A DNA stretch of 20,000 nt. It comes from an uncultured virus (IMG/VR IMGVR_UViG_3300037504_000366). Lineage: Duplodnaviria > Heunggongvirae > Uroviricota > Caudoviricetes. The stretch lies in IMG/VR virus record IMGVR_UViG_3300037504_000366. One strand, written 5' to 3'. The position numbers were made by a program, and so were the translations under genes. The notes under the pieces are model-generated. The model searched no databases, was not told the origin of the DNA, and saw only the letters and a list, made by a program, of their open reading frames with translations. Every line of letters starts with the position of its first letter. The first letter of the stretch is position 1. Shown in pieces: positions 1,088-20,000 of the stretch.

Positions 1088-1539
1088 AGCACTCTCTCTC
1101 CCTTGCTATTAAATAGCGTCGGTTCCGTTTTACCCAACACGCCACTGCCGTAGGCAGCAATAAACGCTGTTCTTGATCGTGGGAGTTGAGCGGAAATTTC
1201 GCCAATGTATCGCGTGCCGATGCCTAGCGTGCCGGCCACCTCGACCAGACCTATGCAGTCCAGATATACTCCATCAAACTTGGCATCGATCAGGAACACC
1301 CGATCGTTCTCTAGAGCAACCACCATAGACGCAGTTCCTGGCAGTGTCAAGATGGTATCCTCGACTATTTCGTTTCTTGGACTGACTCTGACGCCGAATC
1401 CGCCGGCGCTGGCCTGTCCATCGTGGCTAACACTGTACCACTGGTCCATTGGCGGCACACGGTATAGGTGCCACACCCGGACCACGTTAAACTCTGGCGA
1501 TGCAATCTCGCATCCGCCTCCCGTGTACAGGGTTTTCAT
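1060..1539 (-). CDS. hypothetical protein
   Basis: Start reassigned to ATG 1539 (ATGA overlap with the upstream stop). Confidence 0.6.
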   Translation of the reverse strand: MKTLYTGGGCEIASPEFNVVRVWHLYRVPPMDQWYSVSHDGQASAGGFGVRVSPRNEIVEDTILTLPGTASMVVALENDRVFLIDAKFDGVYLDCIGLVEVAGTLGIGTRYIGEISAQLPRSRTAFIAAYGSGVLGKTEPTLFNSKGERVLWLVPFVEG

Positions 1540-2381
1540 CTCCCCCACTCCTCTGGTAACTGCTTGTAATCCATCGATGGCGGCACGGGTGTTTCCTTGT
1601 TGATCTGCTTCACAAACACCGGTATATCGTATAGCTTGCATTCTATCACTAATGGGTGGATCGCATTGATCATCCCGCTGGGCGTCATCGTGGGTTTGCC
1701 TTGTCCACTCTGACCGCCAATCATAATAGCCAGAGAGCTATCGTGCCTGTGCAGAAAGTCCATATACTCCTCCGGCGTCGTGTCCATTGCGTCTTGGAAC
1801 AGGTTCTTTAAGCTGATGTGCTCAAGTATCGGCTCGATCGAGAGCCATAAGTTGATGTCGGGAACGTACATACCCAGCGTCAAGAGCTGTCTTAGCCTGT
1901 AATGTTGGTTCTGCCGCAGAACACTGGTGCCATAGATAAAGCTGCGTGGGGCAGGCTCCTGCTCCAGCACAAATCTTTTCATCCTGCTAGGCCACTTGGT
2001 GAGCAGGAGCCACTTGTGTCCGGAGGCCTCCATTCCACTGATGTAGGGTTTGAGCCACCTGTTAGGGTCTATATCAGGCGCGAACCCATCGCTCAGATCG
2101 TTTACAAAGATGATCCTTGGCATAAACTTGAGCCAGGGCTTGTCGGTCACCTCTTTGGATTTGGGTTCCCGCCATCTGATTGCCTTCTCCAGCCGTTGTG
2201 GATAATACTGCGGGTCTGTAAAGTTGTCCGGCCATCCCTTTCGACCACTATACCTATCCACCAATACCTTGGCATAACAGATGTTTTTATTTGGATCATC
2301 GCTATACAGCTCACAGCCAGTGCATCCCACTACTGGGTTGACCGTGCTATGACAGTATTCTATGTTTGTGTACCTGGCCAT
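1536..2381 (-). CDS. phage Gp37/Gp68 family (DUF5131) protein
   Basis: IEY...TVNPVVGCTGC...NICYA, IFVNDLSDGF, LLLTKWP, WLSIEPIL, MIGGQSG, PVFVKQ motifs. Confidence 0.88.
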   Translation of the reverse strand: MARYTNIEYCHSTVNPVVGCTGCELYSDDPNKNICYAKVLVDRYSGRKGWPDNFTDPQYYPQRLEKAIRWREPKSKEVTDKPWLKFMPRIIFVNDLSDGFAPDIDPNRWLKPYISGMEASGHKWLLLTKWPSRMKRFVLEQEPAPRSFIYGTSVLRQNQHYRLRQLLTLGMYVPDINLWLSIEPILEHISLKNLFQDAMDTTPEEYMDFLHRHDSSLAIMIGGQSGQGKPTMTPSGMINAIHPLVIECKLYDIPVFVKQINKETPVPPSMDYKQLPEEWGR

Positions 2382-6751: not shown

Positions 6752-7243
6752 CAAGTGCAGCTTTTTGTACAGCTCACTCCAGCTTTTGGATGTCCTCCCT
6801 TCCGTAATGCGCTGTAGTCGATATAGCACCCGGTCTGCTGGATTGTCGCATATAAGGTAGAGCCTCTCTATGGCGAGCAAGAGATGATACGACCTACTTC
6901 GAGGGTTAATGTATCCATTTATGATCGATTTTATGATCGTGATCACGTTGTCGGTGTTGGGATTGTATGCTCCATAAACAGCGCTGGCACCATCGAGGGT
7001 CTCATCCATTCCCTTGATGCTAAACAACATCATTAGGGTATCACCTACCTCGTCTTGCAGTGTGTCTTTTTCTCTTGCCCTCACATCGTTCTGCCTCAGA
7101 AGGCGCAACAGCGCATCCAACAGCTCAGATGCCTCTGTAATGGCATACAGAATACAGTCTGCCTCTCCAGGCCAGGCGAACTCATCCTTGATCCAAGCTC
7201 GCCAGGTTTGCACCGCTGCATACAGCTCTTTAGGTGTGTTCAT
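6749..7243 (-). CDS. MazG-like NTP pyrophosphohydrolase
   Basis: TEASELLDA...LQDEVGDTL (ExxE...ExxD). Confidence 0.65.
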   Translation of the reverse strand: MNTPKELYAAVQTWRAWIKDEFAWPGEADCILYAITEASELLDALLRLLRQNDVRAREKDTLQDEVGDTLMMLFSIKGMDETLDGASAVYGAYNPNTDNVITIIKSIINGYINPRSRSYHLLLAIERLYLICDNPADRVLYRLQRITEGRTSKSWSELYKKLHL

Positions 7244-7532
7244 TCTTTAACTCCCCTAGCGTCTTGGGCTTGAAATGCAGATCCCGTTCAACTGGTAACC
7301 CAAACGGCCCACGAATGCTCTTTAACTCGGACAGGGTAAAGTACCCCAGTTCGGGATAGTGGCCTACGACCAACCCAAAGAACAAGTCCTCCCCATCAAA
7401 CTCGCTAGCATACCAGGTCCAACCGCTATCCGGCGTAAAGAACTTGACCTGCGCTATGGCCTCTAGTCCCTTTTCCTCTTGCGAGTATAAGGGCGGCAGG
7501 TTTCCCATAATCTTTTTGGTCAGTAGTTTCAT
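7230..7532 (-). CDS. DUF2958 family protein
   Basis: PPLYSQE..VKFFTPDSGWTWYASEFDG..FFGLV..ELGYFTLSEL..GLPVERDLHF. Confidence 0.88.
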   Translation of the reverse strand: MKLLTKKIMGNLPPLYSQEEKGLEAIAQVKFFTPDSGWTWYASEFDGEDLFFGLVVGHYPELGYFTLSELKSIRGPFGLPVERDLHFKPKTLGELKNEHT

Positions 7533-11805: not shown

Positions 11806-12213
11806 CTAGAATGGGATCTCATCCACTTCTGTATCCACAACCGCTCCGCCAGACGCGACCGAGTCGCCAGGGCTGCCCAGGAACTTGACGGTAAAGGCAG
11901 TCAATTCGTAGGACGCGCCGGGCGATCCGTCATTTCGGTTGAACACCTTCGGGCCGCCTGTCTCGGGGTCGGGATTCATACGACCCTCGACCATTACCTG
12001 GCGTCCCTTGCTCAGGTACTCATTGCAGGTTTCGGCCAGCCGCCGCCACGCCGAGATGCGGAACCAGGTGGTGCGCTCTTGCTGGACGCCGTCTTTGTCT
12101 GTCCAGCGCTCATTGGTAGCAACCGGGAACGATACCACCGGCGTGCCCTCATTGGTGTAGCGCAACTCAGGGTCTTGGCCCAAATTCCCGATAACAATAA
12201 CCTTCTGATACAT
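11806..12213 (-). CDS. ssb: single-stranded DNA-binding protein
   Basis: IGNLGQDPELRYT, VATN, TTWFRISAW, YLSKGRQVMVEGR, C-terminal DEIPF. Confidence 0.97.
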   Translation of the reverse strand: MYQKVIVIGNLGQDPELRYTNEGTPVVSFPVATNERWTDKDGVQQERTTWFRISAWRRLAETCNEYLSKGRQVMVEGRMNPDPETGGPKVFNRNDGSPGASYELTAFTVKFLGSPGDSVASGGAVVDTEVDEIPF

Positions 12214-12272
12214 TTCCACTCCTCTTCTTAAAGTTTTTTTGCTCTTAATCCCTTATCCGCCGAAGGCGGTTT

Positions 12273-13021: not shown

Positions 13022-13094
13022 CTTGGCCTGGTGGACTCGAACCACCCTCTTGTCGGTTTTGGAGACCGACCGGTTTACCCCTACACAAGGCCAA
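13022..13094 (-). tRNA. tRNA-Trp(CCA), weak D stem, no encoded CCA end
   Basis: TTGGCCT/AGGCCAA acceptor; TCGGT-CTCCAAA-ACCGA; GGTGG-TTCGAGT-CCACC. Confidence 0.78.
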
Positions 13095-13107
13095 TCGCGG
13101 TGATAGG

Positions 13108-13180
13108 CGGGGCCAGCGGGATTTGAACCCGCGTTACCAGCTTGACAGGCTGGCGTGCTAGACCGCTGCACTATGACCCC
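13108..13180 (-). tRNA. tRNA-Asp(GTC)
   Basis: GGGGTCA/TGGCCCC, G73; CCAGC-CTGTCAA-GCTGG; normal D and T arms. Confidence 0.95.
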
Positions 13181-13189
13181 AAGCTCTAG

Positions 13190-13262
13190 CACCCTCAGTG
13201 CGACTCGAACGCACAACCTACAGATTAGAAGTCTGTTGCTCTATCCATTGAGCTATGAGGGC
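13190..13262 (-). tRNA. tRNA-Arg(TCT)
   Basis: GCCCTCA/TGAGGGT; ACAGA-CTTCTAA-TCTGT; normal D and T arms. Confidence 0.95.
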
Positions 13263-13459: not shown

Positions 13460-13834
13460 TCAGCCTCTCATCAACCTGCTCAGAGCGTAGTATAGCTCTC
13501 TCCAGGCCTCCTCTGTGTGGCATCTGTTTTTGCAATGGCGCTCGACGATAGTGAGGACGTGAACCATATCGGGATTGACCTCGTTGTGTTTCATAAAATC
13601 CACAAAGCTGGGAGCGTAGCCCTGATAGTTCTCAGGTACCTCCACGTCTCTAAGTAGCTCTGAGACTGTGGTCCCGTACACGCTGGCGATGTTGGCCAAC
13701 GTCGCAATACTTGGCCCGACCTTGCCGTTCTCCAGATCGGACAGAAACCCGATCGAGAGTCGTGTTCTACGGCTTAGATCCTCGAGCGTGAGCTTGTTTC
13801 TCTTGCGCAATGCGTGTAACTTTGCTCCTAGCAT
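13460..13834 (-). CDS. XRE/Cro-CI family HTH regulator
   Basis: LRKRNKLTLEDLSRRTRLSIGFLSDLENGKVGPSIATLANIA. Confidence 0.92.
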   Translation of the reverse strand: MLGAKLHALRKRNKLTLEDLSRRTRLSIGFLSDLENGKVGPSIATLANIASVYGTTVSELLRDVEVPENYQGYAPSFVDFMKHNEVNPDMVHVLTIVERHCKNRCHTEEAWRELYYALSRLMRG

Positions 13835-17464: not shown

Positions 17465-17647
17465 TTACCACCCCTCTAGTGTTATCATGAGACACAATGT
17501 CCAAAGTGCGGCAATGCCGATCACCCCTACGACGATACCGACCGCCAGGAGTATCACTTTCAGTGACGCTCCCGATATTAGCATAAACATTCCTAATAGC
17601 ACAATGGGGGTGATGACAGTAACCGCTGCTGCAAGTCCTCTTACCAC
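17465..17647 (-). CDS. small membrane protein (2 TM)
   Basis: Almost entirely hydrophobic; GAGG SD. Confidence 0.6.
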   Translation of the reverse strand: MVRGLAAAVTVITPIVLLGMFMLISGASLKVILLAVGIVVGVIGIAALWTLCLMITLEGW

Positions 17648-17687
17648 CTTTTCCTCCTCTTGTGTACAGGGCCAGGGCTCAGCCGTG

Positions 17688-18011
17688 CTACCCGACAGCT
17701 TTGTTGTACGCCTTCAAGGCGGCCATCGCTTGCTCGTACGAGATATGTATTCCCTTGAGCATCAGGAATTGTCCCGGCTCCATAGCTCTAGCCAAGACTG
17801 TGAACGGCTCTAGTGCCTCCAGGAGCTCTGGCGCTGCGCTCCACAACAGCGCGTTGCTCCTCGAATTCATTGTCACGCCCTCTGCGACGTGGTGGTACGC
17901 CTCCCCTATAATGTACTCTCCATTGTGGACGATGGCATAGTCCCCGCCGTCATCGATCTCCTTGATTTTGCCAGATGACGGCCCTCTTATAGACAAATTC
18001 TTTGCGTGCAT
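17688..18011 (-). CDS. phage protein with NAxLxxAAPELLEAL motif
   Basis: AGGAGG SD; common phage early-gene motif. Confidence 0.75.
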   Translation of the reverse strand: MHAKNLSIRGPSSGKIKEIDDGGDYAIVHNGEYIIGEAYHHVAEGVTMNSRSNALLWSAAPELLEALEPFTVLARAMEPGQFLMLKGIHISYEQAMAALKAYNKAVG

Positions 18012-18093
18012 ATACCCTCCTAAGGTTTGTTCTGGACAGCCGGTCCTCTATACGGGTTGCCTAGACCCACCGGCTGTCCAACGATCCGGCTAT

Positions 18094-18164
18094 GAGGTCA
18101 TAAGCGGACTTGAACCGCTTGTCTCTGATTACGTCAGTGTCTTACCTGCTAGACGAATGACCTC
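18094..18164 (-). ncRNA. tRNA-like RNA with truncated anticodon arm
   Basis: GAGGTCAT/ATGACCTC; GTCT-AGCAGGTA-AGAC; CTGA-CGTAA-TCAG; AAGCGG-TTCAAGT-CCGCTT. Confidence 0.7.
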
Positions 18165-18166
18165 TC

Positions 18167-18263
18167 GAGAGTGCCTGGCCGGTGTTACCAGGAGCTATCT
18201 CGAGAATTACTCCTGGCTACGAGGGAGCGACCCCCGAGCGGGATTCGAACCCGCGACACCCTC
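18167..18263 (-). ncRNA. circularly permuted tRNA-like RNA (T arm, closed acceptor, D-like arm; YrlA-like topology)
   Basis: GAGGGTGTC/GGCACTCTC closing stem; GCGGG-TTCGAAT-CCCGC; CGGGGG-TCGCT-CCCTCG; TAGCCA...TGGTAA...GGC. Confidence 0.6.
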
Positions 18264-18265
18264 AG

Positions 18266-18338
18266 AGCACCGGGTGGGATTCGAACCCACAACCTAGTCT
18301 TTACAAGAGACCAACTCCTCCAATTGAGCTACCGGTGC
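18266..18338 (-). tRNA. tRNA-Thr(TGT)
   Basis: GCACCGG/CCGGTGC, U73; GGTCT-CTTGTAA-AGACT; normal T arm. Confidence 0.93.
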
Positions 18339-18343
18339 TTATT

Positions 18344-18731
18344 GTGGTGTGGTGTGCTGTTACGCCAAAGGCTCCAGCGACAGATTTACGCATTGGAGTC
18401 GGCTATCGCGCCAGCTTGCGGATGTCGTCTCCTTAATTGCACTTTCCTCTCGTACTGGTGCAACGTACGTATCTCTCCTGGCTTGCCCCGCTCCGATGCT
18501 AGCCCGCTCAGACGAAAGTTTCACCAGTACATTTATCCAAGCTGGAAGCCGCACGGGGTGCTCGTTTCGCTAGGGTCTGAGGTGCCTGCTGGTCTCGTAG
18601 GGGTAAGGCTTCCCTCTCCTGCCACCTCTGATATTAACGTTGCCCAGGCTGCCAGTTATCTCCCAGGCAGAGCGATCCCTATTGCCACTCTTTAAAGGAT
18701 GGCTGCCTCTAAGCCAACCTCCCAACACCAC
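18344..18731 (-). ncRNA. structured ncRNA combining a 23S rRNA H42-H44-like GTPase-associated centre and a sarcin-ricin loop
   Basis: GGGAGGTTGGCTTAGAGGCAGCCATCCTTTAAAGAGT ...321 nt... GCGTAACAGCACAC, closed by GTGGTG/CACCAC; internal TTGCAC-C-AGTACGAGAGGA-AA-GTGCAA. Confidence 0.85.
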
Positions 18732-18734
18732 GAG

Positions 18735-18806
18735 TGGACCAGGTAGGATTCGAACCTACACCACCAGCCTCTTTGGTTGCTGGTGCTCTCCAAGAGCTAC
18801 TGGCCC
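18735..18806 (-). ncRNA. tRNA-like RNA with Ala identity (G3.U70, A73) and a 10-nt anticodon loop
   Basis: GGGCCAG/CTGGTCC-A; GCTC-TTGGA-GAGC; CCAGC-AACCAAAGAG-GCTGG; GTAGG-TTCGAAT-CCTAC. Confidence 0.8.
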
Positions 18807-18810
18807 AGAA

Positions 18811-18886
18811 TGGTGGGTGATGTCTCCACCACCCACCAACCCTAGAAAGGAGAAAAATCAGGCGCAAGGACCCCGCCCCCTTGCGC
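18811..18886 (-). other. two hairpins flanking an anti-SD-like CTCCTTTCTA
   Basis: GCGCAAGG/CCTTGCGC, then CTGATTTTTCTCCTTTCTAGGG, then a 12-bp GAGA hairpin. Confidence 0.45.
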
Positions 18887-18906
18887 AGACTTGCCCCCGT
18901 TACACC

Positions 18907-19140
18907 TCAGACAAGCCCCCCTCGTTCGTTGATCTCGTCGATTTGATACAGAGCAGACTCTGTTGATATGTCGCCATCGTGCCATCTTTCAATGACCTCG
19001 ACGGTTGCGTTAACTTGCTCTATTCTGTCAAGGATATCCTCGAGAGCGCTTGCATCTATGATGCAGGTTCCGTCATCTAACAGCTCTGCTTTCTTGCAAT
19101 TAAATCCCAACTGCTTGATCTTGCTCTTAAGGTATCCCAT
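18907..19140 (-). CDS. hypothetical protein
   Basis: 77-aa ORF with a purine-rich leader. Confidence 0.6.
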   Translation of the reverse strand: MGYLKSKIKQLGFNCKKAELLDDGTCIIDASALEDILDRIEQVNATVEVIERWHDGDISTESALYQIDEINERGGLV

Positions 19141-19188
19141 TTCATCTCTCTCTTTCTGCCGAAGGCTATTTTTAAACAGTTGCCGTAG

Positions 19189-19260
19189 CTGCGCCGGTAG
19201 GACTCGAACCTACAATCTTTTGATTAACAGTCAAATGCCTTGCCGTTAGGCTACGGCGCA
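19189..19260 (-). tRNA. tRNA-Asn(GTT)
   Basis: TGCGCCG/CGGCGCA, G73; TTTGA-CTGTTAA-TCAAA. Confidence 0.95.
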
Positions 19261-19276
19261 GGGTATGACCTAGCGA

Positions 19277-19313
19277 CAAGTATACCACGTTTACTCACAG
19301 ACTCCAATAATCT
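19277..19313 (-). promoter_or_regulatory. sigma70-type promoter upstream of tRNA-Asn and the ncRNA array
   Basis: TTGGAG-17 nt-TATACT with TG extension; shares ACGTGGTATACTTG with the 8825-8838 promoter. Confidence 0.6.
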
Positions 19314-20000
19314 CGAGACTCCTCATCCATTCCAGCACCTCGTCGAAATCGACTAGCCTGGACACCGTGAGGGCGTATCTGCCCTCGAAACCATCGATAC
19401 CCCGAACCTGCCCGAAGTGTCGGGGAATTATTGACGGGCACACTGTTTCAAAAAAGATCATCCGCTGGTTGTTGTCAAACGCCGAGCATATCTTGAATGC
19501 ACGCTTGCGCTCTGGGGCAGAGACACCAGTGAGCACATCCACTGCGACACGATTCGCGGCGAGCGCCTCGTTGCTACGCTCTAGGTCTTTCTCGAGCTGA
19601 GCACAGCGCTCAGCCCACTCGTTAGCCTTTTCTTGCGCTTTATCCCGCTGATCGCAGGCGTGCTCGAACCCTGCGGCCTTTTGCTGTAGCTCGTTGTTCT
19701 CCTTAACTAGCCTGCCTACCTCATCACCAAGGGCACTGCACAGATCTCTCTCGCGTTCGTGCTTGGCGAGAGCGCGGTCGCGCTGGAGCTCTGCCTCGGC
19801 TCGCTTGCCCTTTTCTGTGAAGTAGTCCTCGCGCCAGCCTGCGCGGGTCCGTGTGTCTGAGAGTTCTGTTCTTAAGTCCCCGATTGTGCTCGACATCGAA
19901 TCAATCTCATCGTCGCGCATCTTGAGCGCTAGGCTCAGCTCCTCAATCTTGGCAGCCCAGGCAATCAGCTTACTCGCCTGGGCCGCGTTGGCCTTTCTCA
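19291..20000 (-). CDS. coiled-coil protein (5' partial)
   Basis: Frame stays open upstream of ATG 19920 to the window edge; heptad-rich. Confidence 0.7.
   Translation of the reverse strand, partial: RKANAAQASKLIAWAAKIEELSLALKMRDDEIDSMSSTIGDLRTELSDTRTRAGWREDYFTEKGKRAEAELQRDRALAKHERERDLCSALGDEVGRLVKENNELQQKAAGFEHACDQRDKAQEKANEWAERCAQLEKDLERSNEALAANRVAVDVLTGVSAPERKRAFKICSAFDNNQRMIFFETVCPSIIPRHFGQVRGIDGFEGRYALTVSRLVDFDEVLEWMRSLEIIGVCE

Follow-up and report, generated by a model that had tools for sequence, protein, structure and literature searches.

The DNA analysed in this study is a stretch of 20,000 nt (hereafter the window) from an uncultured virus, IMG/VR record IMGVR_UViG_3300037504_000366, and it looks like part of a large uncultured phage. 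By comparing sequences, we identified within a cluster of stable-RNA genes a 388-nt RNA (18344..18731, running from the 5' to the 3' strand of its closing stem) as a long-form member of an uncatalogued family of phage RNAs, self-closed replicas of the GTPase-associated centre (GAC; helices H42-H44) of 23S rRNA. The architecture of the family comprises a closing stem like H42 and analogues of H43 and H44 that bear the 1067-type and the 1095-type loop, respectively; an insert departs from the 5' strand of the H44 analogue. The insert of the long form (~310 nt in the window) is a conserved two-domain scaffold presenting a hairpin that carries the loop of a second rRNA element, the sarcin-ricin loop (SRL). 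All elements of the cluster lie on the minus strand, and coordinates are those of the whole window unless another sequence is named.

According to the parts of a published study that deal with this site (PMC8661411), GAC and SRL are the two rRNA elements that jointly form the binding site of translational GTPases. The 388-nt RNA thus unites copies of both rRNA elements of the ribosomal factor-binding site in a single molecule. The two halves of the site copied by the virus are ~1,600 nt apart in 23S rRNA.

The likeness to the GAC resides in two blocks. The 5' half (18687..18731; helices 1-3 of the consensus described below), which provides the 5' strand of the closing stem, the H43 analogue with its 1067-type loop and then the start of H44, is 91.7% identical to positions 1049-1084 of E. 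coli 23S rRNA, in the numbering of the gene annotated in the E. coli sequence L005. The 3' half (18344..18372; helices 1, 2, 4 and 11) completes the insert-base stem and the closing stem with their 3' strands, between which lies the H44 analogue and its 1095-type loop GCGTAACAGC. In the annotated L005 gene the conserved blocks correspond to positions ~1049-1084 (5' block, 36 nt) and ~1087-1104 (3' block, 18 nt), with 91-97% identity. Since this gene presumably starts 4 nt later than the standard numbering, the blocks represent standard positions ~1053-1088 and ~1091-1108, which make up H43, H44 and the upper part of H42. The closing stem of the window copy pairs 18728-18731 with 18344-18347 and 18722-18724 with 18350-18352. 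A 27-nt GAC family pattern is matched exactly at 18689-18715 and a 19-nt 3' block (the H44 hairpin with a GUAANA loop) at 18351-18369; neither was matched in any of 200 shuffles. When 396 nt of the window were used as a blastn query, annotated 23S rRNA was matched in 5426 of 5426 E. coli genomes, at a median of 7 places per genome. A first-pass annotation of this DNA had listed a 23S mimic at this place. The likeness is far beyond chance and that to the SRL is real and conserved, and the stronger resemblance, to the GAC with its H43 and H44, had gone unnamed in that list.

Related copies are present in other phages. A blastn search of the region against 50,697 phage records matched eight of them, seven of which share the same ~40 nt (window ~18685-18727) with 90.7-95.3% identity; matches of this kind were found in Pseudomonas phages Milchi, Astolliot and pf16, Aeromonas phage 4_4572 and Xanthomonas phage XacN1. 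Inspection of four records (Milchi, XacN1, pf16 and 4_4572) placed the match within or beside an interval with no annotated RNA, adjoining tRNA genes or, in XacN1, an RNA ligase gene. The gene directly upstream of the GAC mimic in XacN1 (L002 834-1484, +) is annotated as a 2'-5' RNA ligase. The stretch in Milchi receives a weak Rfam assignment to positions 1097-1144 of the bacterial large subunit (LSU) rRNA model. A scan with the 27-nt pattern returned 54 viral contigs, only one of which (L022) resembles true 23S rRNA beyond the pattern. The family is thus widespread, in isolated phages of Pseudomonas, Aeromonas and Xanthomonas and in dozens of uncultured ones, and has been missed by standard annotation.

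We compared 58 copies, namely 53 viral loci, four isolates and the window. The second conserved block, GCGTARnAGCACA, is found 43-340 nt downstream of the first in 49 of the 58 (the shortest insert, of ~43 nt, is in L011), and in 48 of these 49 the bases 3' of it are complementary to the 5' flank. Within 40 distinct cores the 1058:1080 pair covaries (GC 24, AU 13, UA 3), and position 1061 is occupied by U in 27, G in 8 and A in 5.

The SRL-like hairpin of the window (18436..18464) consists of a 7-bp covarying stem around the invariant AGTACGAGAGGAA (18444-18456). The first 12 nt of this word are identical to the SRL of E. coli 23S rRNA in L005, and the 13th base is A instead of C. With one mismatch allowed, the 13-mer was matched in 6 of 200 shuffles; the window match is exact. 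In the long-form subfamily, the window included, the SRL loop AGTACGRGAGGAA is placed in a covarying hairpin ~73 nt upstream of the 3' block. Viral contigs were scanned with the SRL word alone, and metagenomes and species genomes with the SRL word followed by a 60-85-nt gap and the 3' block. These scans yielded further long-form loci: L060 (on the same contig as L017), L075, L067 (the same as L072 and L082), L074, L076, L073, L077 (nearly the same as L080), L078 and L081. The loop is invariant among the long forms except for GGGA in place of GAGA in L060 and L075, and the stem varies yet stays paired. Pattern matches L061-L066, L068-L071, L079 and L083 contain SRL-like words without GAC blocks (L079 and L083 were read as coding sequence, the rest as chance) and were excluded before alignment.

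The structure of the 388-nt RNA was derived from the comparison of relatives and not from a single-sequence fold. The unconstrained fold of the window's 396 nt alone is unremarkable (z = -1.20), and RNAalifold applied to three sequences was too weak inside the insert. Applied to an alignment of 10 long-form members (A4), it returned 39 consensus pairs in 11 helices, comprising the closing stem, H43, the insert-base stem, two domain stems (of GUGG/CCAC and AGGG/CCCU types), the SRL hairpin and H44. Standard pairs fill 94.1% of the cells and 24 of the 39 pairs are changed on both sides, none of 500 shuffles reaches any of five measures, and sliding the partners by 1-3 columns lowers pairing to 31-46%, although the structure was predicted on the same alignment as that tested, which favours it somewhat. 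Within the insert, the SRL hairpin (helices 7-9) shows 90-100% pairing and 6 pairs with changes on both sides, and the insert-base and domain stems (helices 4-6) show 97.5-100% pairing and such changes in 9 of 11 pairs. The window copy forms all 39 consensus pairs, including the insert-base and domain stems. A profile of this alignment, searched against an E. coli rrn locus comprising 16S (its last 707 nt), spacer tRNAs, 23S and 5S, recovered the GAC (E 3.5e-12), the SRL (E 0.029) and no other place. Neither blastn-short nor the profile search detected further pieces of rRNA in the inserts.

These comparisons bear on a further explanation of the likeness, by which the element would be left over from 23S rDNA captured from a host, resemble it by chance, or form a group I intron core. 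The high identity to 23S rRNA could be taken to favour it, as could two loci in which a mimic is associated with a group I intron match: in L038 (554-982, +; 64.8 bits) the match spans a short-form GAC mimic at ~701-880, and in L032 (1067-1261, -; 55.2 bits) it lies just upstream of the mimic. Against it stand the self-closing stem that covaries, the strong covariation, an insertion point in H44 common to 49 of the 58 copies, and a shortest insert of ~43 nt (L011); moreover, in 185,579 species genomes the long-form pattern found no such RNA, its single match being coding sequence. Contradicted already by the constancy of the insertion point, the profile and the covariation, this explanation is in our view most improbable. 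The group I intron model (RF00028) has no match in the window at E values up to 10, and both flanks of the 388-nt RNA are complete cloverleaves. Nor is the element a 23S rRNA gene: the LSU rRNA model gives zero matches in the window at E up to 10, there is no continuity, and just two short places of the rrn operon match.

We rate the RNA class as categorically new and the rest of the array (tRNAs, terminator, YrlA-like mimic) as ordinary or of known kinds. Neither in the window nor in 53 scanned loci does any family of Rfam 15 match the GAC-mimic RNA, and a search of open-access full texts and bioRxiv retrieved no description of a phage-encoded GAC or SRL mimic RNA. The main text of Weinberg et al. 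2017 (PMC5737381) does not contain the terms 'rRNA', 'L11' or 'tmRNA'.

The family members share a characteristic genomic setting. In single-sequence ARAGORN runs, at least one tRNA gene was found within 700 nt of the mimic in 39 of the 53 viral loci (42 distinct), always co-oriented with it and never on the opposite strand, and the end of the tRNA is often ~18-26 nt before the GGCTTAGA word of the mimic. The window mimic is likewise flanked, by a tRNA-like RNA and by tRNA-Thr. At the gathering cut-off, Rfam produced 72 matches in 40 distinct loci, i.e. 68 tRNAs, one transfer-messenger RNA (tmRNA), two group I introns and one HEARO RNA. Complete genes for tmRNA are placed directly downstream of the mimic in L081 (692-1045, +; long form, 81.7 bits) and L034 (223-548, -; short form, 88.3 bits), and the HEARO RNA (L029 1079-1303, -; 133.2 bits) is ~350 nt upstream of a GAC mimic. 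Ordinary tRNAs directly adjoin the other long forms, namely Thr-TGT in L060, L075 and L074, Pro and Leu in L067, and Gln in L076. Upstream of tRNA-Thr and the long form, L060 also encodes an 89-nt mini tmRNA-like RNA with a G3:U70 acceptor (1861-1949, -; Rfam tmRNA 41.2 bits versus a cut-off of 47), and its close relative L075 has in the equivalent place a DUF3800-VII RNA (119-205, +; 49.5 bits, above the cut-off). In L067, a hairpin resembling domain IV of bacterial signal recognition particle (SRP) RNA (588-631, -; Rfam 40.7 bits versus a cut-off of 40, model positions 24-66 of 97) is situated just behind a TTGACA-type promoter-like site, downstream of the tRNA array that holds the long form. 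Inspection by eye of the same locus (~800-935, -) disclosed a tRNA-like gene with an apparent insert of ~60 nt in its anticodon region.

That the RNA constantly sits among tRNA genes, only a few nucleotides from its neighbours, would suit an element acting solely in cis, in which case the 388-nt RNA would organise how the tRNA precursor folds, is processed or is kept stable, and would have nothing to act on in trans. Yet nothing obliges a spacer to preserve, in phages that are unrelated, 36 plus 18 nt of rRNA and the exact loop of the SRL, and 14 of the 53 viral copies have no tRNA within 700 nt. A purely cis-acting role is accordingly, in our view, very improbable.

The region of the window that contains the mimic (18032-19307) is a phage stable-RNA cluster, in which tRNA-Asn and tRNA-Thr are interleaved with non-decoding structured RNAs. 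The first-pass annotation had described it as a co-oriented array of tRNAs, a small open reading frame (ORF), tRNA-like RNAs, the 23S mimic and a terminal stem, separated by tiny spacers; as judged with ARAGORN, Rfam and folding, this inventory is essentially right, and the sequence places the RNA units 0-6 nt apart. The two decoding genes, tRNA-Asn(GTT) (19188..19260; Rfam 73.9 bits) and tRNA-Thr(TGT) (18265..18338; 62.3 bits), are canonical: both score above 29 bits in Rfam, have a 7-nt anticodon loop and are called by ARAGORN at default settings, which reports nothing else in this region. At the gathering cut-off, Rfam applied to the whole window adds a unit at 18735-18806 (51.2 bits), and a search of the small region adds another at 18095-18162 (32.9 bits). 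CCA is encoded in none of the tRNA or tRNA-like genes of the array.

Between tRNA-Asn and the remaining RNAs is a 77-aa ORF (18907..19140, from the ORF list) whose sole database match is itself (one protein from two candidates), with no homologue; it has a weak PHROG match (E 6e-4) and no Pfam family. It is followed by a hairpin (18862-18886) with a 9-bp stem including six G-C pairs, a 7-nt loop and a T-rich tail, CTGATTTTTC; the G+C-rich stem followed by a T-tract marks it as an intrinsic terminator (18852..18886). This hairpin had previously been interpreted as bearing an anti-Shine-Dalgarno (anti-SD)-like tract, a view that is not supported, matches to the 3' end of 16S rRNA being at chance level. 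Segment 18800-18915, taken as a candidate mimic, has just two separate 6-mers in common with the 16S 3' terminus of E. coli (L005), in reversed order (E=14 each), and no contiguous match. Directly 5' of the first tRNA-like unit is a leader hairpin with a 12-bp stem (18807..18842; the fold of a 104-nt segment has z = -4.39). The cluster ends with a 13-bp stem-loop lacking a T-tract (18032..18081; z = -3.17), just upstream of the ribosome-binding site and ATG (18011) of the next ORF; the terminator scanner made no call for this stem-loop.

The promoter proposed at ~19280 is a motif recognised by eye and unverified (19279..19307: TTGGAG at 19302-19307, a 17-nt spacer and a TG-extended TATACT at 19279-19284); its -35 matches the consensus at three of six positions, and a consensus promoter scanner made zero calls in 17600-19600. 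A single uninterrupted transcript would have to read through the terminator, which separates the ORF from the RNA genes. The RNAs 3' of the terminator therefore depend on read-through or on a promoter that escaped detection. A look-up of sequencing runs containing the stretch listed a single one, a DNA run from a tidal flat metagenome that may be its source, and none of RNA.

Elsewhere in the window, a second tight cluster of tRNA genes, Trp-CCA, Asp-GTC and Arg-TCT (13022-13262, -), is co-oriented with the array. Every ORF submitted to family scans is on the minus strand, and few have family matches; those above the curated Pfam cut-off among the 44 ORFs scanned include DUF5131, DUF2958, SSB and a Cro/C1-type helix-turn-helix (HTH) protein (window 1536-2381, 7230-7532, 11806-12219 and 13460-13834, all -).

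Three tRNA look-alikes accompany the mimic. The Ala-type unit (18734..18806), which borders its 5' end, is called by ARAGORN at -ps90 alone, as tRNA-?(caaa) with G3+U70, an 8-nt loop and the four-base anticodon CAAA. In the Rfam alignment 10 nt replace the canonical 7-nt anticodon loop, so that the loop ranges from 8 to 10 nt depending on the method and is non-canonical in either case. The unit has a short D-loop of 5 nt and an intact T-arm, and folds with z = -3.09. It probably cannot decode normally. It shares G3:U70, A73 and the intact T-arm with tRNA-Ala and the tRNA-like domain of tmRNA, G3:U70 together with A73 being what we take to be the alanine identity set. It differs from tmRNA in having no tag frame, no pseudoknots and no Rfam tmRNA match; ARAGORN -m, at default settings, finds no tmRNA in the window, and the sole Rfam tmRNA match there is an 18-nt T-arm belonging to the next look-alike (14.1 bits).

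This next unit, a 99-nt circularly permuted tRNA mimic (~18166..18264; z = -3.35), has the topology of YrlA (RF02553): its ends form the 'anticodon' stem, followed by the T-arm, a 6-bp acceptor-like hairpin closed by a loop, and a GUAGC D-like arm. The same order (T-arm, acceptor-like stem-loop, D-arm, paired 5' and 3' ends) is given for YrlA in the relevant sections of Chen et al. 2014 (PMC4201824). The unit aligns to positions 13-96 of the 114 of the Rfam YrlA model, leaving 1-12 and 97-114 unmatched, and scores only 17.6 bits versus a gathering cut-off of 69. The Rsr-binding motif GNCGAAN0-1G, as defined in those sections (PMC4201824), is absent from 18240-18272, and no gene for Ro60/Rsr (TROVE) is found among the 44 ORFs of the window, i.e. 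in 20 kb of the contig. The low score and the absence of the motif, and of a TROVE protein from the ORFs scanned, lead us to consider the unit YrlA-like in design and not a member of that family.

The third unit, a degenerate tRNA-Tyr(GTA)-like RNA (18094..18162; ARAGORN at -ps90), folds with z = -3.33 and has a 3-bp D stem, an A/A mismatch in the anticodon stem, C33, a U:U at 7:66 and a variable loop of 4 nt. Bacterial tRNA-Tyr carries a long variable arm. The unit lacks both this arm and U33, as well as being absent at the gathering cut-off from the whole-window Rfam search, and it may be either a decoy or a decaying gene.

The array could accordingly be uncoordinated, with the Tyr-like (and perhaps the Ala-like) unit a decaying tRNA gene and the permuted unit an orphan Y-RNA-like gene, all of which happen to share a phage stable-RNA cluster. 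The several defects of the Tyr-like unit, which narrowly exceeds the Rfam cut-off and does so only when the small region is searched, point in this direction, as does the fact that no atypical unit recurs beside other long-form RNAs in the loci examined. Searches for relatives of this phage also found none that are close: tblastn with a 667-aa protein gave matches that were all below 60% identity, and a scan of viral contigs with the same protein gave none. Against this reading, T-arms and acceptor stems are intact in all three units, which fold well above shuffled controls (z = -3.1 to -3.35). We consider such a chance assembly possible, though on balance unlikely.

What might these RNAs do? 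The co-orientation and tight packing of the elements and their tRNA or tRNA-like flanks, features already pointed out in the first-pass annotation, are borne out in the window and make release by tRNA-processing enzymes a reasonable proposal; in the family, co-oriented tRNAs are near the mimic in 39 of the 53 viral loci. As in established tRNA processing, RNase P cleavage at the 5' end of tRNA-Thr and maturation of the 3' end of the tRNA-like unit upstream would release the 388-nt RNA from its precursor. The freed RNA would fold alone and compete, off the ribosome, for proteins that recognise the factor-binding site. It may in this way draw rRNA-directed toxins (of host defence, of toxin-antitoxin (TA) systems, or effectors of competitors acting on H44 or the SRL) away from ribosomes, while the neighbouring tRNAs and their look-alikes might replace or shield tRNA targets in the same manner. 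This role as a decoy is the reading we prefer, with somewhat less than even confidence.

A decoy or replacement role is plausible because bacterial toxins attack exactly these sites. Tre23, a type VI secretion system (T6SS) effector, ADP-ribosylates nucleotides 1095-1098 of H44 and impairs the GTPase activity of EF-G, as stated in passages of PMC8661411. Among the TA toxins of mycobacteria, VapC20/26 cut the SRL and 11 paralogues cut tRNA anticodon loops, according to the corresponding part of PMC5175351. A toxin family that cuts both the SRL and tRNA anticodon loops would match the company of tRNA genes in which the RNA is found.

Several observations nevertheless weigh against the decoy. The toxins just cited are a T6SS effector and mycobacterial TA toxins. 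The decoy must also compete with tens of thousands of ribosomes. The GGGA tetraloop that replaces GAGA in the L060/L075 lineage would be unsuited to a toxin requiring the exact loop, and the short-form copy within the group I intron match of L038 fits a general protein-binding module equally well. We know of no anti-phage system targeting H44 or the SRL. An intrinsic terminator lies between the 77-aa ORF and the downstream RNA genes, and the consensus scanner called no promoter. Finally, the three atypical units do not recur beside other long forms, no conserved neighbour protein was found among the long-form loci beyond the L060/L075 pair, and genes for uL11 or bL12 are absent in 5 of 5 carrier contigs searched.

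The GAC and SRL replica might serve instead as a sponge for host factors. It would titrate uL11, possibly together with the uL10-bL12 stalk, or a factor docking on this site, such as EF-G, EF-Tu or another translational GTPase, or RelA. Translation would then be retuned, or the stringent response blunted, during infection. Consistent with protein binding, none of the 10 long forms differs from the others in the loops containing the 1067- and 1095-type adenines, and the positions of the tertiary fold are kept or, like 1061, altered in a stabilising direction, changes at 1061 being such as stabilise the isolated GAC domain. EF-G reportedly binds isolated oligonucleotides of the SRL and of the thiostrepton domain (ascribed to Munishkin and Wool, 1997). 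The occurrence of the module inside the L038 intron match and beside tmRNA genes (L081 and L034) likewise fits a generic protein-binding module, and phages do encode domains of the stalk protein bL12, as noted in part of PMC6375957. On the other hand, the RNA has a short closing stem, nothing resembling a kink-turn for uL10 was noted, sequestered elongation factors would harm the translation of the phage too, and a uL11 or bL12 of its own occurs in none of the five carrier contigs. Taking these arguments together, we think the titration of host factors conceivable but doubtful.

A bolder variant is that the long-form RNA, loaded with host uL11 and perhaps the stalk, constitutes a free 'mini GTPase centre', which would bind translational GTPases, or defence enzymes that depend on the stalk or the SRL, off the ribosome and possibly trigger them. 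This seems distinctly improbable. If true, it would represent a viral RNA organelle-mimic and a natural minimal system for ribosomal GTPase activation.

The other proposals also have consequences beyond this phage. If the 388-nt RNA is the decoy that we prefer, rRNA itself would be a battleground of phage-bacterial immunity, and the RNA would become a probe for finding defence enzymes whose target is the GAC or SRL. Binding to uL11 or GTPases, if it occurs, would reveal a new viral way to tune translation, and the RNA would then supply a natural, self-folding minimal model of the GAC for structural and mechanistic work.

Comparison with known systems helps to define what is unusual in this RNA. 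Its closest counterpart is the bacterial 23S rRNA GAC (the uL11- and thiostrepton-binding domain), from which the mimic retains the hairpins of H43 and H44 together with the two functional loops. The mimic family differs from it in being outside any rRNA gene, in its own covarying closing stem, in the 43-340-nt insert in the 5' strand of H44 and in its residence in phage tRNA clusters. The loop AGTACGAGAGGA of the mimic is identical to that of the E. coli SRL (H95, L005), including the GAGA tetraloop closed by C-G and the AGUA and GAA flanks. It is distinguished from H95 by an unrelated covarying stem, A and not C as the 13th base, the existence of one GGGA lineage and the phage scaffold that carries it. 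Within the family, long and short forms share the 5' and 3' blocks, the closing stem, the insertion point and the tRNA-cluster context, and the long insert adds the two-domain scaffold and the SRL.

Stable RNAs other than tRNAs are encoded between the tRNA genes of T4 (rnaC and rnaD) and T5 (RNA1), from which they are released by tRNA processing. No sequence relation between these RNAs and the mimic was seen, and no T4 or T5 record is among the blastn matches from the 50,697 phage records; to our knowledge, neither rnaC, rnaD nor RNA1 has been reported as a copy of rRNA. We also know of no described RNA class that copies a functional centre of LSU rRNA as a free-standing, trans-acting gene. 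The nearest parallel in principle is provided by the rRNA-mimicking leaders of ribosomal protein (r-protein) operons, which are likewise RNAs that copy a protein-binding site of rRNA off the ribosome. No Rfam match to r-protein leader families was obtained in the window or in the long-form loci. These leaders are short, cis-regulatory 5' untranslated regions, whereas the 388-nt RNA appears to be a stand-alone gene of a phage tRNA cluster that copies two distant sites of rRNA.

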